Below, in pieces: positions 14,376-59,644 of a stretch of 64,000 nt of DNA; the first letter of the stretch is position 1, and the number at the start of each line of letters is the position of its first letter. This stretch comes from Coriobacteriia bacterium. Its GTDB lineage: Bacteria; Actinomycetota; Coriobacteriia; WRKU01; WQUG01. A program made the position numbers and the translations under genes. The notes below the pieces were generated by a model, which saw nothing but the letters and a program-made list of their open reading frames with translations, had not been told where the DNA came from and ran no database searches. Location of the stretch: assembly GCA_009785795.1 (NCBI GenBank), contig WQVN01000001.1, forward strand, positions 25,487 through 89,486. Reading direction: 5' to 3'.

Positions 14376-14409
14376 TCTGGGTTTCGAAGTCTTAACATGT
14401 GTACGAAAA

Positions 14410-14486
14410 TGGTCGGGCTGACTGGATTTGAACCAGCGACCCCATGACCCCCAGTCATGTGCGCTACCATGCTGCGCCACAGCCCG
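14410..14486 (-). tRNA. tRNA-Pro (anticodon GGG).
   Basis: The reverse complement folds with acceptor CGGGCTG/CAGCCCG, anticodon loop CTGGGGG, T-arm GCTGGTTCAAATCCAGT and a terminal CCA. Confidence 0.85.
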
Positions 14487-14520
14487 ACGCGGATGCTAGT
14501 TTAGCACATTTCCACAGCAA

Positions 14521-14555
14521 AAGAGGGTAGGTCAAACTGACCTACCCTCTTTTTA
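14521..14555. terminator. Bidirectional rho-independent terminator serving groEL and the coaBC/tRNA-Pro side.
   Basis: AAGAGGGTAGGTC-aaact-GACCTACCCTCTT is a perfect 13-bp stem. T runs follow on both strands. Confidence 0.7.
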
Positions 14556-14705
14556 AACAATGTTCTTACCATTCAAAGTTTTGAGTTGTTTTAGCAAAGC
14601 GTGGGCGCAAGGCTCGTGTAGCTGCAAAACGTAAGCGACCATTGGGGTCGTGTCGTTTTGCAGATAGCGAACGAGCGATGCACGCGCAGATAAAACAGGT
14701 CAAAA

Positions 14706-16349
<1,644 letters not shown>

Positions 16350-40402: not shown

Positions 40403-41485
40403 CTACTGCATTGATGGTGGCGGTGATCCCAGCGGTGGCTCAACTGGTGGCGCATTTTGGAATTCACTTGCAGATGAGATAGGCGAAGGTTCGGTTGGCA
40501 ATGGTGGTTGCGGTAACTGTTCAAGTTTCTTTTTGCGTTTTTTGATGCTGCGACGTACCAGTACCCAGATTACCGCGACAATTGCTGCTAACAAAAGAGC
40601 GAAGGGCGCTATCGCAATGAGCACCAGAGCAAGACCCTGCATGAACAACACAAAAGCATTTATCGAAACCGTGAAAGTATGGCCTGCGCGGGTAAGGAAA
40701 CCGTCCTCTTCAATAGGAGTAATAGTCTGAACCTCGGTTAATGTCAGAGTAACCGTGCTCATAGTGACAAGGCTCTCTGTTCTGATGTTCTCGCCCCTAA
40801 GGCGTTCAATATCGATGCGAATTTCTGATACGCGGTCGCGTATGCGGAACACATCTGCAACATCGTCTGCGCCCTCCATAATGGCAAGCAGTTCTGTTTC
40901 CTCTGTTTCGAGGATTTTGATACGTGCCTCGCGATCAAAAAATGCGTCAGTGACATCATCACCTGATTTCGTCAAGGATAATAGGTTGCCCTGCGCGGTC
41001 ACGCCCTCTACAAACCGATCAAACTGGTCTTGAGGCACACGCAGCACCGCATGATAGGTGCGAAGATTATCTGCACTTCCGTCTCCGCTCAATTCGGAAT
41101 CTTGGGTAAAACCGCCTGCTGCACTGAGGGCTGTCTCAATGGCAGTGCGCGATTGATCAAAATCCTTTGTTTCAAGTCTGGCGGTTGCCGAGCGAATCAG
41201 CATACGATCTGCATCTGTCGGCGCACCGCCACCTGCAGGCGGCACAACAGAAGTAGCGGATTCAATGGAATCAAGCGAATCGAATTCTTCTTCTGTCATG
41301 TAGCTGTAGCGCTGCACCCCGCCAATACCAGCAGAATCATCCGATAACAGTCCAAGAGATTCGGATCCGGCTGCCCATTCATCGGCAGAATCAGTCGCAG
41401 TCATTGGTGCAGTACAACCTGCTACACCAATCGCCAACAGCAGAACTGCCAGCAATGCCAACAGCAAAAATTTAGTCTTTTTCAT
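40403..41485 (-). CDS. DUF4349-domain lipoprotein with a C-terminal TM helix and a Pro-rich tail.
   Basis: It has a lipobox (GVAGC), a DUF4349-like core and a C-terminal TM helix followed by RKKKLEQLPQPPLP. Confidence 0.6.
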   Translation of the reverse strand: MKKTKFLLLALLAVLLLAIGVAGCTAPMTATDSADEWAAGSESLGLLSDDSAGIGGVQRYSYMTEEEFDSLDSIESATSVVPPAGGGAPTDADRMLIRSATARLETKDFDQSRTAIETALSAAGGFTQDSELSGDGSADNLRTYHAVLRVPQDQFDRFVEGVTAQGNLLSLTKSGDDVTDAFFDREARIKILETEETELLAIMEGADDVADVFRIRDRVSEIRIDIERLRGENIRTESLVTMSTVTLTLTEVQTITPIEEDGFLTRAGHTFTVSINAFVLFMQGLALVLIAIAPFALLLAAIVAVIWVLVRRSIKKRKKKLEQLPQPPLPTEPSPISSASEFQNAPPVEPPLGSPPPSMQ

Positions 41486-43050: not shown

Positions 43051-43261
43051 GACTCTATTGTAAGTTAATCCATCATCTGGCTTGTATTTTCCCTACCATC
43101 TGAACCTGAAAAGGTTTATCATTAAATATACGTGTAAAACAGCATCGTCCCTCGTCGCAGGCAACTACGCTTGAGTGTCCGCGCACGGGCAGCCGTCTAC
43201 ACGGACAGCTGTGCAAGAGCTGCACAGAGATGAACGATTCAACAGGAATGGATGTAACACG

Positions 43262-44266
43262 ATGAAAAAGAGCTTTAGGACAGTCAGGACACTTTTCATG
43301 GTACTCATCTTGCTGTGCGCGTCCCTTGTTGGGGGCAGCTTAATTGCAGGAGCGTTACCGGAGTATGAGGACAACGGGTCAGATGCGGATGTCCCTACAG
43401 ACGTACAGCCAGTTGATGTTCCAGAAACTGAGGAAGGCATCATGGCAATCAGCGGAGAGCTTGATGCTGAAATGGCTGCCACACTAGGTGGACCCATTAC
43501 TCCCTTTGAATCCATGATTTATAAAGTCATGCAATCGCATGGTTCATGGATTGTTATTGTAGGTGGAGACTTGGCAGAAAATATGCCACTGCCAGCAACT
43601 ATCGAAATCGCAGTGCCCGCAGATGCTCCTGTCTTTTGGTTTGGTGAGGTTGGTAATACAGGCGATCCTGCTCAAGACCCACGCTTTCCACAACCATGGC
43701 AGTTCCGCACAGAGGGTGACTTTGACATCTACACTGCAACTATGACGCAGTATCATCGAGTCCAAATTGAATATAGGCTGAACGATAGCCCATTTAGCCA
43801 AGGACCAGACGGACCCTCAATCCACGTAGAGTACACTCCCTTGCAGGATCTTGAAGAGCTGCGCTTAGCTGTTGCACTACCAGCAGGTGGCGCGGTACTT
43901 GCACGCGATGTTCAGTTCCTCGGTATGGGACCTGGTAATGAACCTGCCTTTGCTCGCATTATCGAAAACGCTCAAGCAGGCGAGTTGTATTCCACAGAAA
44001 TTACCTACACCATTACTGCAGGTGGAAACGCCATAACAAATCTCGACGGCTGGGTAGTTATCGTTCTCGCTGCCCTATTGTTTGGCGGTGCTGCCCTAAC
44101 CTTCTGGCTGTTTATCAAGACAAGAAATAAATCAGCCCACTACGATGATGACTGGAGTGAAGACGAGAGCGTCCAAGAAGATGACGACAGCGACAACGAT
44201 ACAAGCGAAGATGTTGATGATGATCGCTCTGAAGCTTCTAAAAGTGGTGGAGCTTGGGGCAACTAA
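43262..44266 (+). CDS. Paralog A of an uncharacterised type-I membrane protein family, built as a signal peptide, an extracytoplasmic domain of about 230 aa, one TM helix and an acidic cytoplasmic tail.
   Basis: AGGAA precedes the ATG at 43262 (MKKSFRTVRTLFMVLILL). The motifs IAVPADAPVFWFGEV, RTEGDFDIYTA, IEYRL and HVEYTPL are shared with the next two genes. The TM helix is followed by a DDDSDNDTSEDVDDD tail. Confidence 0.7.
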   Translation: MKKSFRTVRTLFMVLILLCASLVGGSLIAGALPEYEDNGSDADVPTDVQPVDVPETEEGIMAISGELDAEMAATLGGPITPFESMIYKVMQSHGSWIVIVGGDLAENMPLPATIEIAVPADAPVFWFGEVGNTGDPAQDPRFPQPWQFRTEGDFDIYTATMTQYHRVQIEYRLNDSPFSQGPDGPSIHVEYTPLQDLEELRLAVALPAGGAVLARDVQFLGMGPGNEPAFARIIENAQAGELYSTEITYTITAGGNAITNLDGWVVIVLAALLFGGAALTFWLFIKTRNKSAHYDDDWSEDESVQEDDDSDNDTSEDVDDDRSEASKSGGAWGN

Positions 44267-45297
44267 TGGCAACATCAACACATAAGGTCACACACAGACT
44301 CAGGGCAAAAATCCTGAGTCTGACCACATATGTTCTTGCGCTATCACTACTTTTAATGGTTCTTGCTCCCACGCTGGGACTACTTGCAGACAGCACCACT
44401 ATGCCGATTCCCGCATTGCTGACTGCTGCGGTTGCTGGAGCAGATGAAACTGATCCAAGCAATACAGCAGACGAACCTGAAGAAGAACGGCTTGTCGCAC
44501 CTGTAGTCGAACCTGCCACAGATCAGATAATGCCTCTGGACTTCGTGCTGTACAAGGTATATCGCACTCCAGATGGCTATGCTGGATTAGTCAGTGGCGG
44601 CATGGACATATCAGAAGAACAACTTCCCGCACGCTTTGAGGTTGCCGTTCCTGCAGGAGTTGAGCTTCTGTGGTTTGGTGAAATACATGGCGGCGATAGA
44701 GAGAACGATCCTGCCTTTCCTGAGCCATTTGAAATGCGCACAGAGGGTGACTTTGACATCTACACTGCTGTCACTACAGTGCCCGTCATGCAGATTGAAT
44801 TCCTACTGGGCTACACTGCCACTGAACTTATGCGTAATGGAAATCATTCAATACACCTAGAATACACCCCTCTGCATAATGCACGAACGTTGCGTTTGGC
44901 GACATATATCCCTGATGGCAGTACCGTACTGGACGCTCCGCTGCTTGAAAACTTAGGTCTATCCCCTCACCTGCATGAATATATTTATGCACGCACCTTC
45001 AGCAATGTTGCCGGTGGCAGAGCCTACGAAATCACTATTGAATACCAGCCCTCAGCGGCTGCGGCACGTCACGGTACCGCTGACCTTGAGATGGGCATCG
45101 TTGTCGTAGCGGTCACAGTGATAGGAACCCTGTTTTTGGCGGCAGGACTCATGTTGCTTGTCAGGCACAGGCGTAACCAAGCAGAGTCATACGATGACAC
45201 AGATTACGATACTTATTACGGCGAAAACAACGATGAAGGCACTGATGATGTTGATGACAGCACAGAAGACAGGGAAGAAAGTAGCGATGACGAGTAA
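44266..45297 (+). CDS. Paralog B of the same family.
   Basis: Its ATG at 44266 overlaps the TAA stop of paralog A in a TAATG junction. It has the same motifs (VAVPAGVELLWFGEI, RTEGDFDIYTA, HLEYTPL), a TM helix and an acidic tail. Confidence 0.7.
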   Translation: MATSTHKVTHRLRAKILSLTTYVLALSLLLMVLAPTLGLLADSTTMPIPALLTAAVAGADETDPSNTADEPEEERLVAPVVEPATDQIMPLDFVLYKVYRTPDGYAGLVSGGMDISEEQLPARFEVAVPAGVELLWFGEIHGGDRENDPAFPEPFEMRTEGDFDIYTAVTTVPVMQIEFLLGYTATELMRNGNHSIHLEYTPLHNARTLRLATYIPDGSTVLDAPLLENLGLSPHLHEYIYARTFSNVAGGRAYEITIEYQPSAAAARHGTADLEMGIVVVAVTVIGTLFLAAGLMLLVRHRRNQAESYDDTDYDTYYGENNDEGTDDVDDSTEDREESSDDE

Positions 45298-46087
45298 TTC
45301 GCTGCAGCTACGCAATTCGCACAGCAGAGGTCAGCGGCAATTCAAAGCGCTCATCCTGTGCTGCGTGATTTTTGCACTGTGTCTAAGCATGGGATTTGGG
45401 CTAGTTCTGCCATCTGCTGCACAGGCTTCACAAGATATCGCTCCCTTCTCCTTTTTGCAATATAAGCAATTTCGTGTTCCTGACGGATATACGGGAGCTG
45501 TGATGGGCATCCTGTATCCAGATGTCGAATTGCCTGCAACAGTACAAATTGCTGTGCCGGAAGGTGTCGATGTCTACTGGTTTGGCGAAGTGCCAGAAGG
45601 TGGAGTCAATCCAGAATCTGTACCCTTTCCAGGAGCTCTTGAGCCTCGAACTGCAGACGGAATGGATATCTATACTGCAGTAGTGCAGAATTCTCACACC
45701 GTTCAAATCGAATTTTACCTCGAAGGCTTTCCTGTGCGGTCACTTCCGAATGGCAACCATTCAATCCAAATTGAATACACGCCACTCGACGACGTCGGCG
45801 TAATGCGTCTGGCCGCTTTTATTCCCGCAGGCAGCGTTGTTCAAAGCCCTGGAGCTGAATACATGGCAACGAGTCCCACAGGCGACATTGCCTATGCCTA
45901 TTCTTTCATTGACATTGAAGCGGGGCAGCGCTTGTCATTTGACATCGAATATATCCCGCCAGAAGTCACTGCTCGTGAAAACGCAGATGGCGTTGCTGGT
46001 GGCATCATGGTTGTCGCAGGAGCACTCTTGCTTACAGCTATCATTGCGATAGTCATGGTGCTGTTCATGAAGGCTCGCAAAAAGTAG
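45287..46087 (+). CDS. Paralog C of the same family, with a short basic tail instead of an acidic one.
   Basis: Its ATG at 45287 lies within the 3' end of paralog B, overlapping it by 11 nt (ATGACGAGTAA). It has an AQA/SQ signal-peptidase site, the motifs IAVPEGVDVYWFGEV and IEYTPL, and a TM helix followed by KARKK. Confidence 0.7.
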   Translation: MTSNSLQLRNSHSRGQRQFKALILCCVIFALCLSMGFGLVLPSAAQASQDIAPFSFLQYKQFRVPDGYTGAVMGILYPDVELPATVQIAVPEGVDVYWFGEVPEGGVNPESVPFPGALEPRTADGMDIYTAVVQNSHTVQIEFYLEGFPVRSLPNGNHSIQIEYTPLDDVGVMRLAAFIPAGSVVQSPGAEYMATSPTGDIAYAYSFIDIEAGQRLSFDIEYIPPEVTARENADGVAGGIMVVAGALLLTAIIAIVMVLFMKARKK

Positions 46088-46113: not shown

Positions 46114-48105
46114 ATGTCCATAAACACGCCCGAAGACCGCGAACTCATACTGCGCGACAAAGCAGCGCGTGAAGGCTTCAATGTGCCACAAGATGTTATT
46201 GATTTTTTGGTCAACCGCTTTGACAGCGAGGTTGGACTAAAAAGCGCACTCATCAATATTGCAATGTTTGCGTCATATCGCTCAATCCCCATTAGTCTTG
46301 ATGTTGCAAAGCTCGTAATTGATGGTGAGAGAGTGCGTCCACTTTCTACGATGACCCCTGAATATGAAGCAGAGCGTGCCACTACATCTACAAGCGCGCC
46401 TGCTGAAAAGCGCGTACCTGCCACACCCATGCAGGCAGCAAGTGCAGCTCCAAAAACACCAGCAGCTTCAGCAGCATCACCGACCCCTAAGCTTGCTGCA
46501 ACACCCCCAGCTGTCAAATCAGAGCAGCAGGATGATCCTCCATCGCTCTTTGATTTGCCCATCCCTACGCCAGCACCTTCTGCACCACAGCCACAAGTTC
46601 CCGAACACGACCTTACAGCACCTTTCACGGTTCAACCTGCCCAGAAGGCTGCAACACCTGTCACCGAGCCTGCTGCATCTACAATACCTACACCAGAACA
46701 GGCACCTGTTGCTGCACCTATATCAGTAAGCCCTGAACCAACAACATCTGCACCTGCAAAACCAGCACCTGTAGCACGATTCTGCTCACAGACTGGTAAA
46801 CCTCTGAATCAGGAAACCACAGTACCGCCTACGCCAGTTGCGACGCCGGCTCCTGAACCAGTAGTGCCAATGCCGATGCCAACACCCGCTGTGCAGCAAG
46901 CTCAATACTTCCAGCCAATCAAAGAGGCTCCTCCCCAACAATCAGAAGCGCAAATGCGCCTTGTCTCGCAAACAGGAAGTGACGTGTTCTTTATTCCCTT
47001 GCGTACTCAGCGCAAGCGATCATTGTTTGAGCGCATCAATTTGGCACTTACTCGCGCCGGCATTGACGACGTGATTCAGGCAGACGACAAGGTCGCTGTT
47101 AAAATTCATTTTGGCGAAGAAGGCAACACTGGCTTTGTCAGTCCAGTCCATGCACGTAATGTAGTAAATCGTGTTAAAGAGTTGGGTGGAAAACCATTCC
47201 TCACTGACACAAACACGCTTTATGCAGGGCAGCGTCAAAACGCCATTGATCACATAAATTGTGCTATCGCAAATGGATTTGGCTATTCAACCGTAGGTGC
47301 GCCCATCATTATTGCAGACGGTCTGATTAGTCGCGATTCTGTTGTCGTGCCCGTCGCTGGTGGAAAACATTTCGAATCGGTGCGCGTTGCAAGTGCCACC
47401 ATAGATGCCGATGTCATGATTGTCATTAGTCACGTCAAGGGACACAGTCTAGCAGGCTTTGGCGGTGCGATCAAGAATATCGGTATGGGGTTGGGTTCGC
47501 GTAGCGCAAAGCAGCGCATGCATTCTGGCATCAAGCCAAGCGTTGTTCCCGATAATTGTACAGCCTGTGCTCGCTGCATTGACTGGTGTCAACCAAAGTG
47601 CATCACTATGGCACAGGGTCAGTCAGGAACACGCTACGCTCACATCAATCATGATGTATGCAATGGCTGTGGCGAATGTCTGACAGCTTGTGCCCATGGT
47701 GCGATTGCTATTAACTGGGACACCTCTCCTCAGGATTTCTTAGAGCGAACTGTTGAACATGCAGCAGGTGCGCTTGCGCACTTTAGTGCAAAAGAACAAA
47801 ACAAGGTCATCTACTTGAACTTTTTAACCAATATCACGCCAGACTGTGATTGCTGCACCTATTCCGATGCCCCCATCGTTGGCGATATTGGCATACTTGT
47901 TAGCTGCGACCCAGTTGCAATTGATCAAGCAGCCGTTGACTTGGTCGAACAAGCACAGGGCGCAAAAGACTCTGTTGGTGAAGACCTCAAGTGCGGTGAT
48001 GAAAAGTTTCAGGCAATCAATGACGTTGATGTTTCTTTGGCAATGCGCTATTCGCAACAACTAGGGCTCGGCTCACAAAACTACCGCCTGCGTACGATTA
48101 ACTGA
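46114..48105 (+). CDS. Fusion protein: DnaA-lid-like helical domain, a Pro/Ala/Thr-rich linker of about 220 aa, and a DUF362 domain with an inserted 2x[4Fe-4S] ferredoxin.
   Basis: An AGGAG RBS precedes the ATG. The N-terminus, ELILRDKAAREGFNVPQDVIDFLVNRFDSEVGLKSALINIAMFASY, resembles the DnaA/Hda AAA+ lid (compare the DnaA segment [33 protein letters not shown]). The C-terminus has CxxCxxCxxxC and CxxCxxCxxxC clusters embedded in a DUF362 core. Confidence 0.7.
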   Translation: MSINTPEDRELILRDKAAREGFNVPQDVIDFLVNRFDSEVGLKSALINIAMFASYRSIPISLDVAKLVIDGERVRPLSTMTPEYEAERATTSTSAPAEKRVPATPMQAASAAPKTPAASAASPTPKLAATPPAVKSEQQDDPPSLFDLPIPTPAPSAPQPQVPEHDLTAPFTVQPAQKAATPVTEPAASTIPTPEQAPVAAPISVSPEPTTSAPAKPAPVARFCSQTGKPLNQETTVPPTPVATPAPEPVVPMPMPTPAVQQAQYFQPIKEAPPQQSEAQMRLVSQTGSDVFFIPLRTQRKRSLFERINLALTRAGIDDVIQADDKVAVKIHFGEEGNTGFVSPVHARNVVNRVKELGGKPFLTDTNTLYAGQRQNAIDHINCAIANGFGYSTVGAPIIIADGLISRDSVVVPVAGGKHFESVRVASATIDADVMIVISHVKGHSLAGFGGAIKNIGMGLGSRSAKQRMHSGIKPSVVPDNCTACARCIDWCQPKCITMAQGQSGTRYAHINHDVCNGCGECLTACAHGAIAINWDTSPQDFLERTVEHAAGALAHFSAKEQNKVIYLNFLTNITPDCDCCTYSDAPIVGDIGILVSCDPVAIDQAAVDLVEQAQGAKDSVGEDLKCGDEKFQAINDVDVSLAMRYSQQLGLGSQNYRLRTIN

Positions 48106-48123
48106 CCAGCCGAATACATACCT

Positions 48124-48885
48124 ATGACTGGTGATACATCACCTGGAACGCTCTACGTCGTTGCCACCCCCATTGGCAACTTGGGAGATATGACCTTGCG
48201 TGCAATTGAAGTTTTGCAGCAAGTATCGGCAGTCTATTCAGAAGATACGCGTGTTTCCAGACGGCTGTTTAATCACTTTGGAATCGATACGCCACTCAAA
48301 CGCTTCGATGACAGAACAAGCTCACGTAAAATTCCTGAGATTTGTACGCACCTAAAAACTGGCGCAGACATTGCACTGATAAGTGATGCAGGAACTCCTA
48401 CAATCTCTGATCCTGGAATGCCACTAGTCGCCGCAGCACGTGCAGACAATATCCCCGTTACGGTAGTTCCTGGTGCAAGCGCAGCTGTGGCAGCGCTTTC
48501 AATTAGTGGACTGCCTGCTCATGCCTACTACTTTGGCAGCTTTCTGCCCCGCAAAAAAGGCAAGTGCGAAACCTTGCTACAGTCGCTAGATATGCTAAAC
48601 GCCACTCTGATTTTTTTCGAATCTCCTCACCGCATTGTGACAGCAACACAGCACCTCGCACAGCTCTACCCCAATAGACAGGCAGTCATCGCACGCGAAC
48701 TGACAAAACATTATGAAGAAGTTTTGCGCGGCAATCTAGAAGAGCTGTCTGCAGAGCTCACTCACAGGCAAAACAATAATCTAGTCAGCACACTGCGGGG
48801 CGAGTTCGTTATACTATTAGCTCCGCTTAAATTTGACGGCACACATACTGATGGCATAAAAGACAGACAAAGGCAGGATTCATGA
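48124..48885 (+). CDS. rsmI: 16S rRNA (cytidine1402-2'-O)-methyltransferase RsmI.
   Basis: It has the tetrapyrrole-methylase fold, with LYVVATPIGNLGDMTLRA and ISDAGTPTISDPG. Confidence 0.85.
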   Translation: MTGDTSPGTLYVVATPIGNLGDMTLRAIEVLQQVSAVYSEDTRVSRRLFNHFGIDTPLKRFDDRTSSRKIPEICTHLKTGADIALISDAGTPTISDPGMPLVAAARADNIPVTVVPGASAAVAALSISGLPAHAYYFGSFLPRKKGKCETLLQSLDMLNATLIFFESPHRIVTATQHLAQLYPNRQAVIARELTKHYEEVLRGNLEELSAELTHRQNNNLVSTLRGEFVILLAPLKFDGTHTDGIKDRQRQDS

Positions 48886-50111
48886 AATACGCAATTGTAA
48901 TACTCGACGGAGCAGCTGACTACAAAATTGGACAGCTTAACAACAAGACTATTATTGAGGCTGCAACAACGCCCATTCTGGATATGATGGCACAACAAGG
49001 AATGGTAGGTCTTGCTCGCACTGTTCCAGAAGGCATGGAAGTATCCTCCAATGCAGCATGTACTTCAATTCTAGGTTATGACCCTGTTGCAAACTTCATT
49101 GGGCGCGGTGCTATTGAAGCTGCAGGACAGGGCATTGAACTTGCTCCTGACGAGATTGCCATGCGCATCAACACGCTAACTATTCTAGATGGCAACATGG
49201 CTAGCTATGCAGGCGGCAATATCTCTACTGCAGATTCCACTGCAATTGTCACGCGCCTTGCCGAACACCTTAATGACGACACTTTCACCTTTTATCCTGG
49301 CAAAGCCTATCGCCATATCTTGGTCGCCAAGGGATATCCAGAGGTAATGAACTTGAACTATACTCCCCCACACGACATTAGTGATATGCCCATTGGCCTT
49401 GATGAATTGCCAAATGGTCAAGGCGAAGATGCACGTCCACTACTCGAAATGATGGCACATGCTCATGAGATCTTGAAGGATGACCCCACGAATGCGCGCT
49501 TGGTTGAAGCGGGAGAGTTGCCCATTACCGATATCTGGCCTTTCTGGCCAGGCACTGCCTCGCAAAATCTGCAATCCTTCAAAGAAGCATATGGCTTACG
49601 AGCATCCATGACCAGCAGCGTTGACCTTTTGCGCGGTATGGCAGATCTTTTTGGCATCAACTTTTTAGAAATTGATGGCGTGACCGATGGCCTAGATAAT
49701 GATTTTGGTGCACAGGCTGACGGCGCTATTGATGCAATCAAGAATGACACTGCTGATCTGGTCATCATTCACGTCGAAGCTCCCGATGAGATGGGTCATC
49801 AAGGCGACATCGAAAAGAAGCTCAAAGCTGTTGAGCTTATTGACCACAAGATCATGAGCAGACTTTTTGCCTATGCCAAGCAACTTGAGTCAACAGAAGA
49901 TAGTCCAGGATTTCGCATTCTTGCCATGCCTGACCATTTCACCCCCATATCAAGCAGAACACACGAGGATGATCCCGTGCCCTTCTTAATCTGGGGTGAC
50001 GGCATCAAAGAAAATGGTGCCAGGGTCTACAGCGAAGAAGAAGCAATGCGCACAGGTCTTTTACTTGACCCCAACGGCTATGAGGTATTCAAGCTCTTAA
50101 CAGGCAGCTGA
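48882..50111 (+). CDS. apgM: 2,3-bisphosphoglycerate-independent phosphoglycerate mutase, archaeal-type.
   Basis: It belongs to the ApgM family (MKYAIVILDGAADY..., metalloenzyme domain). It overlaps the rsmI stop by 4 nt. Confidence 0.8.
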   Translation: MKYAIVILDGAADYKIGQLNNKTIIEAATTPILDMMAQQGMVGLARTVPEGMEVSSNAACTSILGYDPVANFIGRGAIEAAGQGIELAPDEIAMRINTLTILDGNMASYAGGNISTADSTAIVTRLAEHLNDDTFTFYPGKAYRHILVAKGYPEVMNLNYTPPHDISDMPIGLDELPNGQGEDARPLLEMMAHAHEILKDDPTNARLVEAGELPITDIWPFWPGTASQNLQSFKEAYGLRASMTSSVDLLRGMADLFGINFLEIDGVTDGLDNDFGAQADGAIDAIKNDTADLVIIHVEAPDEMGHQGDIEKKLKAVELIDHKIMSRLFAYAKQLESTEDSPGFRILAMPDHFTPISSRTHEDDPVPFLIWGDGIKENGARVYSEEEAMRTGLLLDPNGYEVFKLLTGS

Positions 50112-50561: not shown

Positions 50562-50999
50562 TTATAGTCCTGTGCTCCAAAAAATGTTCAAACTTTTTTC
50601 GCGCGTCAGAAACTCTGGTGAGCTTGCAGCTGCACTTGCAAAAATGCGTGTCGCAAACAACTCGTATTCAAATGTAAAGTGCAGTGTTCTCTTTTGCAGA
50701 AATAGTTCACCGCTGCTCTCAACATGTACCTGAATCCTATAAGGACCTTTTGATCCTTTGTCATATCCCATAGCCTCATCAAGCACCTGACCTGCTATCG
50801 CTACCGGATCTTCACTCGATGTCACCAATGCGCGCGCAACTTCATTTACGGAACGATCAAAGCGTGCTGCCTCTGCAAAAAACATGCCCACATTCACTAT
50901 GATTGCTAACACTAGCAACACACAGGGGATCAGCATGACCAATTCTGCCGTCATCTGTCCGCACTCGCAGCGAAGCCGCTTCAAACAAGGCAACATCAT
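50562..50999 (-). CDS. TadE/TadF-like pseudopilin.
   Basis: Its N-terminus is GQMTAELVMLIPCVLLVLAII, the TadE-like signature. Confidence 0.65.
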   Translation of the reverse strand: MMLPCLKRLRCECGQMTAELVMLIPCVLLVLAIIVNVGMFFAEAARFDRSVNEVARALVTSSEDPVAIAGQVLDEAMGYDKGSKGPYRIQVHVESSGELFLQKRTLHFTFEYELFATRIFASAAASSPEFLTREKSLNIFWSTGL

Positions 51000-53140
51000 C
51001 GAAATCCCAGCGCGACGAAGAGTTCTTGCTCTCTGCCTCGAACAGACTCGAAAGCAGTGCTTGCCATATTTTGCACTGTCTGACTAAAGGGTAGTGGAAT
51101 ACTGACTCCCAATACGCGAACTTGCATCAGCTCTTCAATGCGACTACCAACATCTGCATCAAGTTCATTAATCATGCCACTTATAGCTTCGCGCATACCT
51201 GCAATTGAAGCACCTCCACTTTGCTCAAGCCCCTCTTTTGCTGTAGCAACCGATTGGACAAAGCTGCCTTCAAATCCTGACGCATTGATATCTCCAACAT
51301 CTGAAGTACTGACTAGTGTTGGCATAGGTCTACGCAAATCTGGAGCACTTATCTGAGCTGTATCAAAGAATGATCGTAGGCTGCTCGTTGCAATGCTGTC
51401 CAAGCCAAAAGGCAATCCCAGCATTAAGCGCTCAATTTGTGCACTGCCATCTGCATGCATCTGTAGGCAACTGCCCCAGATGCTTAAGGCAAATCCAATA
51501 ACCGATCCTGCAAAGCTATCATCCTCACCACCTAAAAGTTCATGTGTCACGCCTGCAAAGCCCTCTACTCCTGCACTATCTGCCATATCAGCAGACTGTG
51601 ACAACAAGCTGGGAATCGTTGACTCGCCACCTGATGGCATGAGGCGTGCACCTGCCATTGCCATCTGCCTACCTAAAACAACATCCTCGGAAGCGGTCAA
51701 AACTGGCAGTGTAAATGCTGGCAGTTCACGCTGCCCTGATGACACAACAACACAAATGTAGCCCCGCGCACCAGCAGGTGTGTAACTTAAGCGATTGCCT
51801 ATCAAAAATGATTTCGACTCTTCAAGCAATAAATCAAATGCATCCTGCGTTCTTTCACGAACCTGATCTTGTTCAAGCTCAATTGATTCTGTCGCCTGAT
51901 ACCACCAACGCAGTGCTGCTGCCTCAAAGTTCCAAGATTGGACGTACTCTGCCAATTGTTGTTCCCATACTTGCAAGGCGCGCCAATGCGGAGGTTCGCA
52001 CAATACGCAGGGTGGATGGTCAACATCACCAGCGACATAACTTAAGGTGCGCGTGCGCAATTCTGCTGTTGAGCCTGCAAGCCCAAAGCAATTCGGATTG
52101 CTGTGATATGCTCTACGATCACCATCAGCACGTTCTAGCACGTAGATGCGTTGTCCGCGTTCGCTACCAAGCAAGTCACTCATGCTAATATCTGCAACAT
52201 CGGCAGCCTCTGTCGCGGCCGCTCTATCTAAAATCACATGGACTTGTTCATCCACGGACTGTCCTATGCGACGATAGTCCTGCAGATAGCGCTCTTGCAG
52301 GCGGTCACGGTTAATCTGTGTGTTATCAATCGGCACAGGACCATCAATCACTGGTATTGACTGCGCCTGTAATTCTCCCCACCCGCGAGCAAAATCGTCA
52401 ATAGCAGACAAAGGATTCCAATGAGCCCTACTAGTTCCTGGCAGCAAAAAGACATTTAGTCGGAAACATTCATCAACGGCCGCCTCGACATCGCCCTCTA
52501 ATCGCTTGATTTCATGGGCAGACTCGGTATTTTCTTTGCCTGCCCTTGTCACTTCTTGTAGTAACTGGTCTGCATCACCAGAAGAATTTGTCAATTCAAC
52601 TTTTCCGCGCAAAGGAAAGGGTACTGCTATCGCTGTATAGGCTGTACCATTAAAGTCCCCCAACAGTCGCGAATTTTCCGTTGCCGAATAATAGCTGGTC
52701 GCCATTGCCAAATAAGGAGTTGCCTCGCTAACCACAGATGCCAACTGATAGGCATGTTGTGCAAATTCACGCCGCTTTTTGCAGTATCGATAATTGAAGT
52801 CAACTATCCGTTCAAGAAAAGGCGTCGCGGCCACACCTCCAACAGGTGCCGAAAGCACCGTTAGCAAGCCTGCCACAATCGTTATTGCATGAAGCACTAA
52901 TCCAAATAAATTTGCCGTAAGTAACATAGCATCGAGAGCTTGAATTAGCATGACAGACTGCGCTGTTACATCAGCTGCTGCCAAAGCCCCAATGTCTGCC
53001 ACAACTTGAATATCTGAAGAGGTCGAGTTTGTCCAGTACCACTGCACGCTGGATGCTAGTAACACCACACTGAGCATAATACCTAGCACCATCGTTAATG
53101 ATGTTGAACCTTCTTCATTTTTGAACCATGAAAGCCTCAT
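50996..53140 (-). CDS. Large (714 aa) TadG-like membrane-anchored protein.
   Basis: It has an N-terminal Tad_N-like segment (EEGSTSLTMVLGIMLSVVLLA) and a long soluble region with no other domain I recognise. Confidence 0.6.
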   Translation of the reverse strand: MRLSWFKNEEGSTSLTMVLGIMLSVVLLASSVQWYWTNSTSSDIQVVADIGALAAADVTAQSVMLIQALDAMLLTANLFGLVLHAITIVAGLLTVLSAPVGGVAATPFLERIVDFNYRYCKKRREFAQHAYQLASVVSEATPYLAMATSYYSATENSRLLGDFNGTAYTAIAVPFPLRGKVELTNSSGDADQLLQEVTRAGKENTESAHEIKRLEGDVEAAVDECFRLNVFLLPGTSRAHWNPLSAIDDFARGWGELQAQSIPVIDGPVPIDNTQINRDRLQERYLQDYRRIGQSVDEQVHVILDRAAATEAADVADISMSDLLGSERGQRIYVLERADGDRRAYHSNPNCFGLAGSTAELRTRTLSYVAGDVDHPPCVLCEPPHWRALQVWEQQLAEYVQSWNFEAAALRWWYQATESIELEQDQVRERTQDAFDLLLEESKSFLIGNRLSYTPAGARGYICVVVSSGQRELPAFTLPVLTASEDVVLGRQMAMAGARLMPSGGESTIPSLLSQSADMADSAGVEGFAGVTHELLGGEDDSFAGSVIGFALSIWGSCLQMHADGSAQIERLMLGLPFGLDSIATSSLRSFFDTAQISAPDLRRPMPTLVSTSDVGDINASGFEGSFVQSVATAKEGLEQSGGASIAGMREAISGMINELDADVGSRIEELMQVRVLGVSIPLPFSQTVQNMASTAFESVRGREQELFVALGFR

Positions 53141-53166
53141 GATTACTGCACCATCCTTATCTGTCC

Positions 53167-53757
53167 TTACCTATTAGGAACAAACCCGAACTGTTGGGGA
53201 GCATTCTGTGGTGTCCCTTCAACCCCTTGTTGTGTGCCACGCACGACAGCATGACCAGTGACTTCAACATTCTGATTTATGCTTGCTCCTACTAAAAATC
53301 CCATCAATGGCAATGGTTCTTGCTTTAGCGAAACACTTACTTCTATGACTTCTGAGCGCGAATTGCCACTAACCTCAACCTGCAATGTTCCGGGAATCCA
53401 AAAAGCATCGCCCCTCGGCAGACCCGCTAATCTATCTGCTGCATAACTGTGCAATAATCCGTCCTGTCCATGACCTGTTTCTTCGTCTTTTGTCGCCACA
53501 ATTCGACCAATTCCTACCGCGACCTGTCCCAATGTCATCTGTGTGTATAAATAGATAGCAGGCTGTATCATCATTAGGATAAGCACGCACATGATTAGGA
53601 TGACCCAGGGCAACTCTGCAAGAGCTTGTCCTTTTTCATTTTGTCGCAGCTTTGCAAGAATCTGCCCTTTAGCGTCTTGCCATAACTTTATACAGGTCTG
53701 TCCGTTTTCGCGCCGTACTTTAAACGAAACTAGTGCATGATTAGATCCTTTAGCCAT
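53167..53757 (-). CDS. tadE: TadE-like pseudopilin.
   Basis: It has GQALAELPWVILIMCVLILMMIQ. Its N-terminal leader contains a short duplicated KGQxLAxL unit. Confidence 0.65.
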   Translation of the reverse strand: MAKGSNHALVSFKVRRENGQTCIKLWQDAKGQILAKLRQNEKGQALAELPWVILIMCVLILMMIQPAIYLYTQMTLGQVAVGIGRIVATKDEETGHGQDGLLHSYAADRLAGLPRGDAFWIPGTLQVEVSGNSRSEVIEVSVSLKQEPLPLMGFLVGASINQNVEVTGHAVVRGTQQGVEGTPQNAPQQFGFVPNR

Positions 53758-53951
53758 TGACCACTAACCCCCGTTCCTGCAGGTGGCAATGAATAAGGTG
53801 CATGTAGGTACGTTCGCGAACTGTGCGTATCTGCATTGGACTCTGCTGCACTAAAATAGCTGAGCAAGGCTGCCCCAGCCAGCACCACAGCAAGGCTCAC
53901 AAGCAGCGCAATAACATACTCTGCATTCGCCTGCCCACTTTCATTGCGCAT
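53730..53951 (-). CDS. flp: Flp-family pilin or pseudopilin (second copy).
   Basis: It has the G/QANAEYVIALLVSLAVVLAG Flp prepilin motif. Its start overlaps the stop of the upstream flp in a TGATG junction. Confidence 0.6.
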   Translation of the reverse strand: MRNESGQANAEYVIALLVSLAVVLAGAALLSYFSAAESNADTHSSRTYLHAPYSLPPAGTGVSGQWLKDLIMH

Positions 53952-54145
53952 CACGCAATGCCGCCCAATTGACTGGTTATGCTTTCCCACACATTTACCA
54001 GTTGCTCATGAAACGCAATCGCTAGAATGATGCAAGCAATCACAATGACCGCTAGAATAATGACGTACTCTGAAACCCCTTGTCCGCAGTCCTTGCGCAC
54101 ATAACTCAAGCCTCTTGCCATGCAACTCAAAACCATATCTCTCAT
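53951..54145 (-). CDS. flp: Flp pilin.
   Basis: The ORF is 64 aa. It has the Flp prepilin motif G/QGVSEYVIILAVIVIA followed by a hydrophobic helix. Confidence 0.75.
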   Translation of the reverse strand: MRDMVLSCMARGLSYVRKDCGQGVSEYVIILAVIVIACIILAIAFHEQLVNVWESITSQLGGIA

Positions 54146-54273
54146 AAAGCTTTCCTCTCATCTTATTGTTATGACTACCTAACCAGCTTTGATGCTTCTG
54201 ATGAATGAACATTGTTTCTGAAAGCAACGTGCAGCACCTATACGTAAGGCTTCAAGAACAACACTCGGCTTCA

Positions 54274-55089
54274 TCAGAAATTGCCCATTCCGGTTAGAAC
54301 TTGTGCCATGATTGGTCCCATCAGCAAGATTAATACTGCTGGTACGATGCATAAGCCTAGCGGAGCCAGAATTTTCACGGGAGTCTTTGCAATGCGCTCT
54401 TCGAGGCGTGCAATACGATATTCGCGCACATCCCGAGAAAAGGTTCCCAGCACAGTTCCCAGTGGTGAGCCCAGAGAAAATGCCTGACGTAAAGCATTCA
54501 CAAATCGCAGTACCGCCTCTTCCTGTAGTGAGTCTGCAAGCTGTTCAAAGGCCTTCATGCGCGAAAGCATTCCTGCCTGATACACCTGCTCTGCGCGACG
54601 AAACTCGTCTGCAAGTGGCGTATCATAGCGCGATAAATACCAGTCAAAAGCCTGGTCAACAGACAATCCTGCACCCAAAGCAAGCAGCAAAATATCAATC
54701 ATCTCGGGCAAGTCGTTTACACAACTATCGCGCAAAGCCTGTGCCTGTCGCTGCTCTATCTTCGATACAATAGGTTTCGCAAATACGCGGACTACAGGAA
54801 GCTCAACCGCTACATTTATTGCCTGATTCAAGCTATTTATTGCATCAGAAAAACCTGCAACACTCACGCCTCTGTCCTGCTTGACTTTGTGTACGGTAAG
54901 CACAGCACCATTACTGTCAATGCTTCCTATTCCCTTAAGGTCATGCAAGCTCTTGCGCTGTTTGCGCGTATGACTTTCGTCAAATTGAAACAGACAGTAT
55001 GCCATCATGCTGACAAGCACAGCTACAGCACTTACGCATATAAGACCCAAAATAAGACCTTGGATCTCTAGATTCGTCAGACTAAACAT
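54274..55089 (-). CDS. tadC: Tad pilus inner-membrane platform protein TadC (T2SSF domain).
   Basis: It has the T2SSF fold with TM helices. Confidence 0.75.
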   Translation of the reverse strand: MFSLTNLEIQGLILGLICVSAVAVLVSMMAYCLFQFDESHTRKQRKSLHDLKGIGSIDSNGAVLTVHKVKQDRGVSVAGFSDAINSLNQAINVAVELPVVRVFAKPIVSKIEQRQAQALRDSCVNDLPEMIDILLLALGAGLSVDQAFDWYLSRYDTPLADEFRRAEQVYQAGMLSRMKAFEQLADSLQEEAVLRFVNALRQAFSLGSPLGTVLGTFSRDVREYRIARLEERIAKTPVKILAPLGLCIVPAVLILLMGPIMAQVLTGMGNF

Positions 55090-56173
55090 GGATATTTACC
55101 ACCGAGCGAACCCATAAGAATCCAACAACTACCAATCCTATCGCCAGAACAAACAGCATTTGTCCTCCCGCAGTGCTTAGCCACAAACCCAAATATCCTG
55201 GCATCATCAGTGAGAGTAGCCCAATCAAGATAAAGGGAATGCTGCCCACTAAACGCACAGAGCTTCTTCCCTGTGCCGTTTGAACCTTTAGCTTCTTGTT
55301 CAGCATCAAATCCTGCCGAATGGAGGTCGCCAGCTCTTCAAGTAACGCAGGGGCACTTCCTCCAATTTGGGCAGTAATATCTATGACCGCTGCCACTGAT
55401 TTAAGTTCGCGGAGTTCTGTTGCACCTGCCATATCATGTAAACTTTTTGAATAATTGCGCCCTAAGCTTGCATCTGCATCAAGGCGTCGCAGCACATCAA
55501 TTGTCGGACTATCTTCACTTTGCCCATCAAGAACAAAACGTAATGCCTGTGAAAACGATCTGCCAGCACGCAAGGATTGTGCTAGTTCATCCAACATGTC
55601 AGGAATTGCTGCACGTAGTGCCTGGCGTCGCCCATCTGCACAAGCCTGCACATAAACCAAGCTACCTATCACCATAAGCACAGCCATAGCAATGGATAAC
55701 AAAGGTGAGCCTAGGGCAACACCCAGTATCATGAACAACAGCAGAACAGCAAGCCACCATTGCAAAACAGCCTCGATATGCTCTACAAAGCCTGCTTGTT
55801 CCAACAATCGCAAGAATCGTCTGCCTGCAACACTATGCTCGCACAATGTTCGGCATGGTCCACTTGTCTTACTCCCCCACAGGGGACGCTTCCACAGGGA
55901 TAAAGTTACACCTTCTCTGCTGCCTGTTTCACTATTAGCAAGCATTGCCTCTGAAGCTATTTTGCCTTGCAGGCGCAGGCGCAATTGCTGCTCATCGCGC
56001 TGTGCTTGTGCTACATCAAAAAGCATTGACGCGAGGGTACTAACCGCGTACCAAGTGCAACCCACCGCACATGCAGCAACGGTAATCCAAAAGAACTGTG
56101 CCAGTACTCCATTCAGCACTCCAAGCTCAAGATTAAGCATGTGCAATCTCCTCTCGCCACAGTGCAAGTTCAT
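55082..56173 (-). CDS. tadB: Tad pilus inner-membrane platform protein TadB (T2SSF domain).
   Basis: It has the T2SSF fold and overlaps tadC and tadA. Confidence 0.75.
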   Translation of the reverse strand: MNLHCGERRLHMLNLELGVLNGVLAQFFWITVAACAVGCTWYAVSTLASMLFDVAQAQRDEQQLRLRLQGKIASEAMLANSETGSREGVTLSLWKRPLWGSKTSGPCRTLCEHSVAGRRFLRLLEQAGFVEHIEAVLQWWLAVLLLFMILGVALGSPLLSIAMAVLMVIGSLVYVQACADGRRQALRAAIPDMLDELAQSLRAGRSFSQALRFVLDGQSEDSPTIDVLRRLDADASLGRNYSKSLHDMAGATELRELKSVAAVIDITAQIGGSAPALLEELATSIRQDLMLNKKLKVQTAQGRSSVRLVGSIPFILIGLLSLMMPGYLGLWLSTAGGQMLFVLAIGLVVVGFLWVRSVVNIHV

Positions 56174-57491
56174 TAGAGTCTGTTACATTTTGAACAAGCA
56201 GCGAATCAACAAAAGTTGGCACTGCAAGGAATCTTGACTGTCCCAATACTGCACCATCATCACCCATTCCTGTCTGTTCAAAACAGTAGATTGGGCGCAA
56301 GTAATATCCTTGCTTACGCCTTGTAGCAATATCGTGCACGTTGTCAGCATGAACAGAATCTGCCACTTTGCTGTCATCACCATTCGACTGGCCATCATCT
56401 GTGCACAGCTCTACCACTTCAATTATTCGGCGTTTGCCATCAGAACAGCGTTGTACATGCACTATAAGATCAAGAGCAGCAGCAATTTGCGCCTCGATTT
56501 GTGTCTGCGATTGATTTGTTCCATAGCCAACCATAGTAATGAGCCTTGTAATAACCTCATGTGGAGTATTCGCATGAAGCGTCGTCAGTGAACCATCATG
56601 TCCCGTATTCATTGCTTGCAGCATTTCGAGTGCTTCAGCGCCACGTACCTCGCCCACAACAATGCGATCAGGACGCATACGCAAGCTATTAATTACCAAG
56701 TCGCGCATGGATATCTCACCCTGCCCTTCAAGATTTGGCGGACGTGCTTCTAAGCGCAGTACATGCGGATGTGCAGAAAATTTCAATTCCGCAGAATCCT
56801 CAATAGTGATAATGCGTTCATCTGCAGGAATTTCTAAAGACAGGGCATTAAGTAATGTTGTCTTGCCACTGCCCGTTCCCCCACTGACAGCAATATTCTG
56901 TCCACTTGCAACGGCCCAACTAAGCAGAGTCGCCAGCCGTGCATCAACACTATTCATCGTCGCTAGCTCATTTAGTGAAAAGGTAAAATCGCTAAACTTG
57001 CGAATTGTCAACAAAGGCCCACTTAGAGACACCGGTGGTATTATCGCGTTAACACGATGCCCTGCAGCAAGACGCCCATTGACCATAGGATTTTGTTCGT
57101 CAATGCGTCGTCCGATAGGCGATATTATTCGGTCAATTGCAGTACGCAACTGCTCTTCACTGCCATAACTATCGGGACTTAAGATTATCTTGCCCTCGCG
57201 CTCAAAGAATATCCTGTCCTCACCATTTACCATGATTTCTGTGACACTGGGATCTGCAAGGAGTGAATCAATGACGCCCAATCCCAGCACTTCACTTGCC
57301 GTAAGTGCGACTAATCTATCACGCTGTTCTCGTGACTTAAATCGTACAGATCCTGTCTGCGCAAGCCTGCGTAAAACTTCTTCAACTTCTTTTCGTGCCA
57401 TGTCGCTATCTGCTTTTAGCAGCGCAGCAATGCGCTCAGGACTGAAAATTTGATACAGTTCGGACTTAAGCTGTTCGATATTCTGGCGCAC
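56133..57491 (-). CDS. tadA: Tad secretion ATPase TadA/CpaF.
   Basis: It has a GGTGSGKTTLLNALS Walker A motif and belongs to the VirB11/CpaF family. Confidence 0.9.
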   Translation of the reverse strand: MRQNIEQLKSELYQIFSPERIAALLKADSDMARKEVEEVLRRLAQTGSVRFKSREQRDRLVALTASEVLGLGVIDSLLADPSVTEIMVNGEDRIFFEREGKIILSPDSYGSEEQLRTAIDRIISPIGRRIDEQNPMVNGRLAAGHRVNAIIPPVSLSGPLLTIRKFSDFTFSLNELATMNSVDARLATLLSWAVASGQNIAVSGGTGSGKTTLLNALSLEIPADERIITIEDSAELKFSAHPHVLRLEARPPNLEGQGEISMRDLVINSLRMRPDRIVVGEVRGAEALEMLQAMNTGHDGSLTTLHANTPHEVITRLITMVGYGTNQSQTQIEAQIAAALDLIVHVQRCSDGKRRIIEVVELCTDDGQSNGDDSKVADSVHADNVHDIATRRKQGYYLRPIYCFEQTGMGDDGAVLGQSRFLAVPTFVDSLLVQNVTDSNELALWREEIAHA

Positions 57492-58917: not shown

Positions 58918-59644
58918 GCGCCGCTGTTAGAACTTGCTCGACTTGCGCATCTGGGATAGCGAGTGTGACCCAAGTAATAGACTCATTGCCACTTTGCATT
59001 CTATTGGTACCACTGCTTGCACTGCCACCAATCAGTGTTGTCCGTCCATCACTCACATCATCGCTGGCAGCAGCATTTTCTCTTCCCATCTGCACTGCAG
59101 ATGTGTTTGCGGACAACACCTCAATACTGTGCGCTAATTCCTCTACACGACCGTTGGGTACCGCTGCCATTAGGCTTAAATGCATGCCACGTACTAATTC
59201 TCCGCCTAATGCATGAACATTGTCTGTTGACAGGGTAACTGCAGTCATTCCTTCAGCAAGACGATCCAATGGGAGAGCCTGGTCAAATATGCGCGCTTTT
59301 GTCGCCACTTCCCCTGCCAATATGACTGCACTTGTTCTGTGGCCTTCAATGCGCTCATAATCCTGTGCTGCTATAGCTCCTTCTGGCAAATATATCTGCG
59401 GCCACAGCTGCTGTTCAAACAAGTGGCTCGTCAGTACCGTACCCACATCAATTTGCTCGCGGGCGACCAACACTTGCTGCAATTCGCCATCAAATTGCTC
59501 AATAGCTTCTGCACGAGCATTGCTCGCAGATTGCGCATAGCTAAACAGAAAAAGTCCTGCGCACAGTGCTCCAATCAACCCAGCACCCATCGATGCAATT
59601 AACTTCCTGTTCTGTTTCACCTTGTTCCTCCTCGCGCAAAGCAT
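58847..59644 (-). CDS. cpaB: Flp pilus assembly protein CpaB/RcpC (SAF domain).
   Basis: It has an N-terminal TM helix and a SAF-like domain (EQIDVGTVLT). Confidence 0.75.
   Translation of the reverse strand: MLCARRNKVKQNRKLIASMGAGLIGALCAGLFLFSYAQSASNARAEAIEQFDGELQQVLVAREQIDVGTVLTSHLFEQQLWPQIYLPEGAIAAQDYERIEGHRTSAVILAGEVATKARIFDQALPLDRLAEGMTAVTLSTDNVHALGGELVRGMHLSLMAAVPNGRVEELAHSIEVLSANTSAVQMGRENAAASDDVSDGRTTLIGGSASSGTNRMQSGNESITWVTLAIPDAQVEQVLTAARAGAIHLVLPAAAFTADDTELDE

Follow-up and report, generated by a model that had tools for sequence, protein, structure and literature searches.

Three consecutive genes in the window, which is the whole 64,000-nt stretch of DNA analysed here, encode related single-pass membrane proteins that a preliminary description could not place in any family. 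This raises the question of what these proteins are and whether they act together. The host genome belongs to a termite-gut member of the Coriobacteriia, common gut bacteria whose envelope construction is little understood. No curated description of the family exists, and it occurs only in Coriobacteriia and their neighbours, where it has kept a single chromosomal position. On the evidence of the sequences, the triplet is best explained as a conserved Coriobacteriia envelope gene, from an uncharacterised family, that was triplicated in tandem in one lineage.

Gene layout and protein architecture of the triplet

The three tandem open reading frames that had been reported, here called A, B and C, were all found on the forward strand. 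Their positions, their encoded segments, and the genes that follow them are listed below.

43051..43261, no strand: intergenic region of 211 nt, with a divergent alpha/beta-hydrolase gene on one side and gene A on the other
43262-44266, + strand: gene A, 334 aa (ORF and translation)
43262-43354, + strand: A signal peptide, aa 1-31, followed by an acidic stretch, aa 32-73 (segment composition)
43481-44047, + strand: A beta-sandwich ectodomain, aa 74-262 (segment composition, paralogue alignment)
44048-44122, + strand: A transmembrane (TM) helix, aa 263-287, followed by an acidic tail, aa 288-334, with 18 D/E and with W/Y
44266-45297, + strand: gene B, 343 aa (ORF and translation), with a signal peptide at about aa 1-41 and an acidic stretch at aa 42-85
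44521-45081, + strand: B ectodomain, aa 86-272, followed by a TM helix, aa 273-301, and an acidic, Y-rich tail, aa 302-343, with 19 D/E
45287-46087, + strand: gene C, 266 aa (ORF and translation), with a signal peptide at aa 1-47 that ends in AQA
45437-45994, + strand: C ectodomain, aa 51-236, followed by a TM helix, aa 237-261, and a 5-aa basic tail, KARKK
46114..48105, + strand: DUF362 protein with a 4Fe-4S dicluster insert, 663 aa (Pfam DUF362, E 8.8e-49; Fer4_7; Fer4_6)
48124-48885, + strand: RsmI-type methyltransferase (Pfam TP_methylase)
48882-50111, + strand: cofactor-independent phosphoglycerate-mutase-like protein, ApgM (Pfam PhosphMutase/Metalloenzyme)

At 343 aa, B lies outside the length range given previously (267-334 aa). 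The database gene call for B (P0001) begins 30 aa after the ATG at 44266, a start that would leave B without the n-region of its signal peptide and with little of the hydrophobic core. Both overlapped junctions that had been described are present: the A stop codon TAA (44264-44266) has one base in common with the B ATG at 44266 (TAATG), and the C ATG at 45287 lies 11 nt within the 3' end of B, where the sequence reads ATGACGAGTAA. The argument for translational coupling drawn from these overlaps is weakened, since they are not conserved, with the intergenic gaps in other loci being +67/-23, +79/+68, and +86/+2 nt by database gene calls. The 211-nt region upstream of A is presumed to be the promoter region of the cluster. 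No Rfam family was found at E<=1 across the cluster, including this region, promoter-like sites in the wider region showed no excess over shuffled expectation, and a terminator scan of the region gave chance-level results.

Pairwise BLASTP comparisons of A, B, and C gave 37-39% identity with E values of 1e-35 to 1e-44, and at the sequence level the three are confirmed as true paralogues whose similarity is far above chance. The paralogue alignment contains the motifs claimed for them (AVP..G, WFGE, RTEGDFDIYTA, QIE, NGNHSI, EYTPL, and LRLA), and the conserved residues include the patterns W.GE, D[IV]Y, Q[IVL]E, and YTP. A pseudogene among the three was ruled out, since each gene is undisrupted and is retained across at least 11 loci.

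The three proteins have a common plan of signal peptide, ectodomain, one TM helix, and tail. This plan had been proposed previously, and both the AlphaFold2 (AF2) model of B and a hydropathy profile consistent with its layout bear it out, except that the folded part of the ectodomain is a beta-sandwich of ~190 aa rather than the ~230 aa claimed. In the model, an N-terminal helix (6-36) is followed by strands (93-261) and a second helix (264-310). The ectodomain is all-beta with pLDDT mostly >90. Acidic stretches of 42-44 aa precede the ectodomains of A and B, and that of B is modelled at low confidence. Signal-peptide cleavage is predicted from A-x-A-type motifs only. The ectodomains have pI values of 4.1-4.6, contain zero cysteines, and carry conserved E/D/Q residues, with no conserved His, Cys, or Met. 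The tails are as described previously, those of A and B being acidic and that of C basic. Every A-clade orthologue has a poly-acidic tail of 40-50 aa; C-clade orthologues have short tails (4-25 aa), and in those beyond the window the E in WFGE and the D in DIY are mostly lost.

A family without sequence matches and its fold class

Neither Pfam hmmscan at E<=1 nor an NCBIfam scan returned anything meaningful for A, B, or C. Pfam searches of 30 diverse relatives at E<=0.1 and of 10 long-form relatives gave only TM or low-complexity noise, and searching all PDB sequences with a profile yielded nothing beyond TM-helix noise. PADLOC and PHROG profiles produced zero matches to the three proteins at E<=0.01; an anti-phage defence system was rejected on the absence of these matches and on the housekeeping context. 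Since word-indexed homologue searches were insensitive (8 and 11 matches), an exhaustive profile search was used instead, and the family it recovered comprises 434 cluster representatives only. Every named relative is annotated "hypothetical protein" and comes from a metagenome-assembled genome (MAG) of Coriobacteriia or Actinomycetes, so the earlier statement that the family is unidentifiable by sequence proved correct.

Fold comparison, for which the AF2 model of B (mc5f7a0857912) was the basis, matched the ectodomain to the N-terminal lumenal domain of Ost1/ribophorin I and to the N-domain of M1 aminopeptidases, with TM-scores of 0.35 (normalised over the query including its disordered parts) and 6-10% identity, values low enough that they establish a fold class and not homology. 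An Ost1-like fold in a bacterium could be convergent, and our search of the literature on Ost1 fold comparisons found nothing usable. A match to a known family, which the preliminary description had said would make the triplet ordinary, therefore exists for the fold class and not for the sequence: the fold is a known one, but the family is new and is described in no curated database.

Orthology, gene neighbourhoods and competing explanations

A degenerate DNA pattern made by hand served to locate metagenomic loci. At least 11 metagenomic loci carry the triplet, with each of A, B, and C falling into an orthologous clade of its own, present 1:1:1, in the constant order A-B-C, and followed by DUF362/Fe-S, RsmI, and ApgM genes, so the synteny check that had been suggested came out in favour of a fixed arrangement. 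In two divergent genomes, tandem paralogues of a sister pair form one fused polypeptide, the two fusion proteins being just 60% identical to each other. The structure of one natural fusion (P0010), predicted from its single sequence without an alignment, was of too low confidence to be informative (pLDDT 39.5). One-to-one orthology in fixed order across these loci and the fusion of a sister pair both favour a co-produced heteromer, which makes an A/B/C complex of this kind plausible on sequence grounds.

In related genomes, the main gene copy usually adjoins cell-wall genes. Single-copy relatives have the order PASTA, family gene, ROK, DUF362, RsmI, and other relatives adjoin PknB, YkuD L,D-transpeptidase, or PcsB-like hydrolases, that is, genes for wall sensing (PASTA/PknB), cross-linking (YkuD), and cleaving (PcsB-like). 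The YkuD neighbours all fall in one clade and thus represent one event. No peptidoglycan gene adjoins the triplet in the window, where alpha/beta-hydrolase, CutA1 (1.4 kb), and DUF4349 (1.8 kb) genes lie upstream. Downstream, the RsmI and ApgM genes (48124..50111) are co-directional, closely spaced, and part of a conserved synteny block whose order recurs in L001, L002, L023, and L057. Secondary paralogue loci have housekeeping gene surroundings.

The preliminary description had favoured a surface receptor, adhesin, or sensor complex. A sensor, like an anti-sigma factor, was rejected since the cytoplasmic signalling domain of a classical sensor is absent, as is a conserved regulator partner. 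The adhesin or receptor claim is made unlikely by the AF2 model of B, in which the last strand (254-261) is followed by the TM-bearing helix from residue 264 with no stalk between them, so that the domain should sit on the membrane face under the wall. A related explanation is that the proteins are independent, diversified ligand-binding surface proteins, directed at plant-fibre or host glycans, that arose by duplication in the termite gut and form no complex. The increase at the main locus from a single copy to 3-4, the additional doublets and singles at other places in termite-gut genomes (L008 and L009, same MAGs), the divergence of the ectodomains to 37-39% identity, and a secondary copy (L054) beside an isopeptide pilin-domain protein would all fit. 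We nevertheless consider this explanation unlikely, since a 190-aa domain without a stalk would remain beneath a monoderm wall, the strict 1:1:1 orthology in fixed order shows no turnover, and two genomes carry a fused paralogue pair. Nor do the A, B, and C translations contain an LPXTG motif ahead of the TM helix, on which grounds a sortase substrate was rejected, or any S-layer or repeat region by Pfam hmmscan; Gram_pos_anchor matched only the hydrophobic/basic end of B (E 0.26, below the cut-off).

Two further explanations start from neighbouring genes. The acidic tails might tether or regulate the cytoplasmic DUF362 Fe-S redox protein to form a transmembrane module of unspecified chemistry. 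The DUF362 gene begins 26 nt past the C stop codon, with AGGAG 8 nt upstream of its ATG; DUF362/Fer4 lies directly downstream in all triplet loci whose sequence extends far enough past C, and DUF362 is found within 1-6 kb of the family gene in single-copy and long-form relatives. The protein encoded here also has a proline/alanine/threonine-rich N-terminal extension of ~320 aa before the Pfam domain, and the length of its orthologues varies (376-582 aa in gene calls, up to ~820 aa in stop-to-stop ORFs). However, a ROK gene lies between the two in single-copy lineages, DUF362-rsmI is followed in L015 by metG, tatD, and ksgA-like genes, resembling a housekeeping backbone, neither protein has a domain known to bind the other, and C is nearly tail-less, all of which leaves such a partnership distinctly improbable. 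That the proteins bind metal ions outside the cytoplasm or confer tolerance to them, their acidic ectodomains and tails buffering or passing on cations, is in our estimation very unlikely. The low ectodomain pI, the conserved E/D/Q residues, and the nearby CutA1 gene point in this direction, as does one relative (P0064, L010), which lies with a second divergent copy in an island encoding two P-type ATPases, an HMA protein, DUF2933, and cytochrome c. This context is confined to one lineage, though, and CutA1 is not conserved beside other triplets, while the lack of cysteines and of conserved His, Cys, and Met residues and the absence of any metal-binding family from the profile scans also argue against a metal-related role.

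A possible cell-wall scaffold and its relation to known systems

The reading that we prefer, with a probability of roughly 0.4, is that A, B, and C make up a cell-wall scaffold close to the membrane, without enzymatic activity and probably hetero-oligomeric, rather than a surface adhesin. Each product would be exported via its Sec-type signal peptide and anchored in the cytoplasmic membrane by the one C-terminal helix, so that the ~190-aa beta-sandwich, acidic and devoid of cysteine, would lie immediately on the outer face of the membrane, within the wall-building zone. Since the sandwich has the Ost1/M1-N fold but no catalytic motif, it may be read as a binding or scaffold module rather than an enzyme. 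The three proteins would most likely be adjacent in one hetero-oligomer, to which A and B would contribute cytoplasmic tails that are long, poly-acidic, and disordered, C being the tail-less, partly degenerate subunit, and the most likely task of the whole would be to organise or regulate proteins that build or remodel peptidoglycan. Against this scaffold, the PASTA, ROK, DUF362, and RsmI neighbours may simply belong to a slowly rearranging chromosomal backbone. The lack of a peptidoglycan gene beside the triplet in the window, the origin of the YkuD cases in one event, the housekeeping surroundings of the secondary loci, and the low scores of the fold match also count against it. A more specific version, in which a heterotrimeric Ost1-like scaffold positions or gates PASTA proteins/PknB, L,D-transpeptidase, and PcsB-type hydrolases while the poly-acidic tails couple it to the cytoplasm, is a long shot.

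If the wall link is real, the family offers a handle on lineage-specific cell-wall organisation. The strict A-B-C orthology and the natural fusion of sister paralogues together give a concrete, testable case for a heteromeric membrane complex. Were the Ost1-like scaffold true, it would represent an unrecognised class of cell-wall morphogenesis factor, specific to Coriobacteriia and Actinomycetota close to them, and would be the bacterial equivalent of the beta-sandwich accessory subunits found in ER transferase complexes of eukaryotes. If none of this holds, the family is one further conserved hypothetical family.

Among known systems, LppM (2nc8) and the DUF4349 protein encoded 1.8 kb upstream are also single-pass envelope proteins with an N-terminal export signal and a C-terminal TM helix; a sequence relation to the family was not found, and the folds are different or only loosely similar. 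PIG-T/Gpi16, the beta-sandwich subunit of GPI transamidase (7w72_T, 9ub7_E), is eukaryotic, larger (527-558 residues), and unrelated in sequence. The M1 metallo-aminopeptidases and leukotriene A4 hydrolase (5fwq, 3qnf, 1z1w) have an N-terminal beta-domain of like fold, without a Pfam match of Peptidase_M1_N (PF17900) to A, B, or C. In these enzymes the N-domain is joined to a thermolysin-like catalytic domain, whereas A, B, and C have a lone domain on a membrane anchor, their translations lacking HEXXH and having only the TM helix (plus tail) after the sandwich. Ribophorin_I (PF04597) matched neither A, B, and C (E<=1) nor the 30 relatives (E<=0.1), no STT3-like partner gene lies next to any locus examined, and no STT3-type polytopic glycosyltransferase is evident in the window, as judged by size and hydropathy only. 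Ost1/ribophorin I (6c26 chain 1, 6s7o chain E), a non-catalytic subunit of oligosaccharyltransferase (OST) in the eukaryotic glycosylation machinery, nevertheless has the N-terminal lumenal beta-sandwich fold in common with the family, at 6-10% identity in otherwise unlike sequences. Ost1 chains are eukaryotic and of 432-560 residues, whereas the family described here is bacterial, with three tandem paralogues that each carry a single ~190-aa beta domain between signal peptide and TM helix.

Organisation and architecture of the triplet

Genes A, B and C are tandem paralogues that encode single-pass membrane proteins, and their open reading frames (ORFs) are arranged as follows.

43262-44266, + strand, gene A, ORF of 334 aa
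44266-45297, + strand, gene B, ORF of 343 aa
45287-46087, + strand, gene C, ORF of 266 aa

Both overlaps reported in the preliminary description were present: the last base of A's TAA stop codon (44264-44266) is shared with B's ATG, and C's ATG (45287) lies 11 nt inside B in the sequence ATGACGAGTAA. Shine-Dalgarno-like purine-rich stretches precede the B and C starts, and a DUF362/Fe-S gene with AGGAG ahead of its start begins 26 nt past C's stop. In the public database, the gene call for B (P0001, 313 aa) begins at Met31 (44356 versus 44266) and so lacks the basic n-region and the greater part of the signal-peptide hydrophobic core; a start at the ATG at 44266 brings both back and makes B overlap A by 1 nt. 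The three proteins are 37-39% identical in pairwise BLASTP (E 1e-35 to 1e-44), and every motif quoted earlier was found in their alignment. The paralogues had been given as 267-334 aa with ectodomains of about 230 aa; the paralogy was confirmed, but B is 343 aa long and the folded part spans only ~190 aa.

The shared layout also held. At each N-terminus a basic n-region leads into a hydrophobic core, and an A-x-A-like motif (AGA in A, AQA in C) closes the segment; from these features we infer signal-peptide cleavage. The ectodomains are acidic (pI 4.1-4.6) and lack cysteine, with acidic linkers of 42-44 aa before the folded domain in A and B, and each is followed by a single hydrophobic helix and K/R residues. 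The tails of A (47 aa, 18 of them D/E) and B (42 aa, 19 D/E) are strongly acidic, and that of C is KARKK.

A and B, at ~37% protein identity, share 32 identical nt (43706-43737 and 44737-44768, CGCACAGAGGGTGACTTTGACATCTACACTGC) encoding RTEGDFDIYTA. In L001 and L002, the two other triplet loci where the comparison worked, this stretch carries synonymous differences (25-28 of 36 nt match). Either chance or gene conversion over a small tract could explain the identity in the window.

Family membership and history of the triplication

In line with the earlier failure to name the family, searches of A, B and C against Pfam, NCBIfam, PADLOC and PHROGs gave no meaningful match, nor did Pfam searches with 10 long relatives and 30 diverse members, and the family profile matched only transmembrane (TM) helices among all PDB sequences. 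When 1.84 billion cluster representatives were searched exhaustively by HMM, 434 proteins passed E<=1e-3, of which 233 also passed E<=1e-10. The family is small, and all named members are "hypothetical proteins" from Coriobacteriia or Actinomycetes MAGs. In a GTDB scan, close relatives turned up in the Coriobacteriia MAGs Emb289P1bin4 and Lab288P1bin96, both from termite guts and both bearing names that fit a study of higher-termite gut MAGs (PMC7024585), and a partial NCBI protein from a Coriobacteriia MAG is 100% identical to B over the part covered. Long forms of 400-560 aa make up about half of the relatives. Behind their ectodomain and TM helix come an acidic cytoplasmic loop, a second TM helix and, at the C-terminal end, small Cys-containing domains (GDPC...FCES), one or two per protein. 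These C-terminal domains had no significant Pfam match, with DUF4307 a weak hint only (E 0.003). The cysteine pair is conserved in the C-terminal 80-200 aa of P0045, P0051, P0064, P0067, P0089 and P0122.

Loci were collected by context look-ups and by scanning metagenomes with a degenerate DNA pattern, 60-odd in all. The triplet occurs in the window, L001/26, L002, L005, L006/48, L007/18, L023, L050, L056 and L057, and also in L060, the closest relative of the window, which has a fourth copy. Local HMM mapping and neighbour-joining trees resolve A, B and C into three separate clades, to each of which every one of these loci contributes a single member, and the order is A-B-C throughout. The triplication therefore predates the window's termite-gut clade. 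All three copies are maintained, none being a pseudogene, and the history of this tandem triplication is unusually clean. Tails are clade-specific (A long and acidic, B acidic, C short), and outside the window the E of WFGE and the D of DIY have mostly been lost from the C orthologues, as would be expected of a degenerate subunit. The weight previously placed on translational coupling is not supported by comparison among loci: database gene calls at three loci give junction spacings of +67/-23, +79/+68 and +86/+2 nt, and with starts that we estimated ourselves the spacings span about -86 to +102 nt, so that tight packing is conserved but strict coupling is not. The four tandem copies in L060 (1822-5428, - strand) lie ahead of DUF362, and the extra one clusters with L008-type paralogues rather than with A, B or C.

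The same MAGs carry further copies: L008 has a single one, and L009 has the tandem pair X1-X2. Two adjacent copies are also found in L036, L049 and L059. In L009, the locus against which the fusions were directly compared, X1 and X2 are separate genes. Two genomes encode the pair as one continuous protein, of 526 aa in L024 and 535 aa in P0010/P0169, and these two fused proteins share only 60% identity.

204-1781 of L024, - strand, fusion of the X1-X2 paralogues, one protein

The fusion reads ectodomain-TM-short basic loop-TM-ectodomain-TM, which is topologically consistent. Its conservation is the best available evidence that neighbouring paralogues may work side by side.

Genomic neighbourhood

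Three kinds of peptidoglycan-related genes flank family members in several lineages, a correlative and partly non-independent pattern. The family's primary locus shows recurrent neighbours. The order PASTA>family member>ROK>DUF362>RsmI is complete at the single-copy short forms of L027/51, partial in L025, L055, L031, L021 and L052, and repeated at the long-form locus L015; in L065/66 a long form lies directly 3' of fhaA-fhaB-pstP-FtsW/PBP-pknB(PASTA). A PcsB-type coiled-coil protein adjoins the family in L013/14, L019, L035 and L061, with an additional NlpC/P60 hydrolase domain in the latter two, and in five triplet-clade loci the upstream gene, which runs in the same direction, encodes a YkuD L,D-transpeptidase. 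Against a wall connection, the window's own upstream genes encode an alpha/beta hydrolase, CutA1 and DUF4349, and paralogues at secondary loci are surrounded by housekeeping genes such as hom, rpoD and queA. The link to cell-wall genes is suggestive but unproven.

Several nearby genes had features of their own. The DUF362/Fe-S protein has ~320 aa before its Pfam domain (46114-47080), a helical-looking head of ~75 aa followed by a long Pro/Ala/Thr-rich stretch; the head may resemble a DnaA-type lid segment. Orthologue lengths vary widely (gene calls of 376-582 aa, stop-to-stop ORFs to about 820 aa). The DUF4349 protein (40403-41485, - strand), 1.8 kb upstream, has a lipoprotein-like N-terminal signal (..AGC) and C-terminal hydrophobic segments before a proline-rich tail, and is another envelope protein with an export signal and C-terminal anchor. 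A run of membrane and ATPase-like genes (50996-59644, - strand) begins with a 714-aa protein that lacks a Pfam match and whose N-terminus, on our reading, resembles a pilus-assembly segment of the TadE/TadG type; these genes may make up a Tad/Flp pilus locus.

Fold and proposed role

In the AF2 model of B (10-row alignment), the ectodomain is all-beta with pLDDT mostly >90, flanked by an N-terminal helix on one side and a C-terminal helix on the other. Because the last strand (254-261) passes almost directly into the TM helix (from 264), the ectodomain should rest on the membrane face without reaching the cell surface. The model thus speaks against the adhesin or surface receptor proposed earlier, and independent, diversified surface binders seem unlikely given this placement and the fused paralogues. 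That A-B-C and the DUF362 Fe-S protein form one functional unit is somewhat less likely still: DUF362/Fe-S and RsmI are the most constant neighbours of the family, but the stretch in L015 looks like a conserved housekeeping backbone because metG, tatD and ksgA-like genes come next. A role in metal handling is the most doubtful; a heavy-metal ATPase island in L010, where two divergent members (7425-8651 and 13753-14796) accompany two P-type ATPases, an HMA protein, DUF2933 and a cytochrome c, gives a hint of a link with metals, for one lineage.

We favour, with a probability of about 0.4, a beta-sandwich module without enzymatic role that would work near the membrane in the zone of wall synthesis. 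A, B and C would probably be joined as a hetero-oligomer, with the acidic tails of A and B facing the cytoplasm; the earlier suggestion of a heteromer is plausible. The protein family itself is real, conserved and not described before, and its fold class is known. Neither HEXXH nor another recognisable catalytic motif occurs in A, B or C, and the reference domains for this fold, the N-terminal lumenal domain of Ost1/ribophorin I and the N-domain of M1 aminopeptidases, are likewise non-catalytic.
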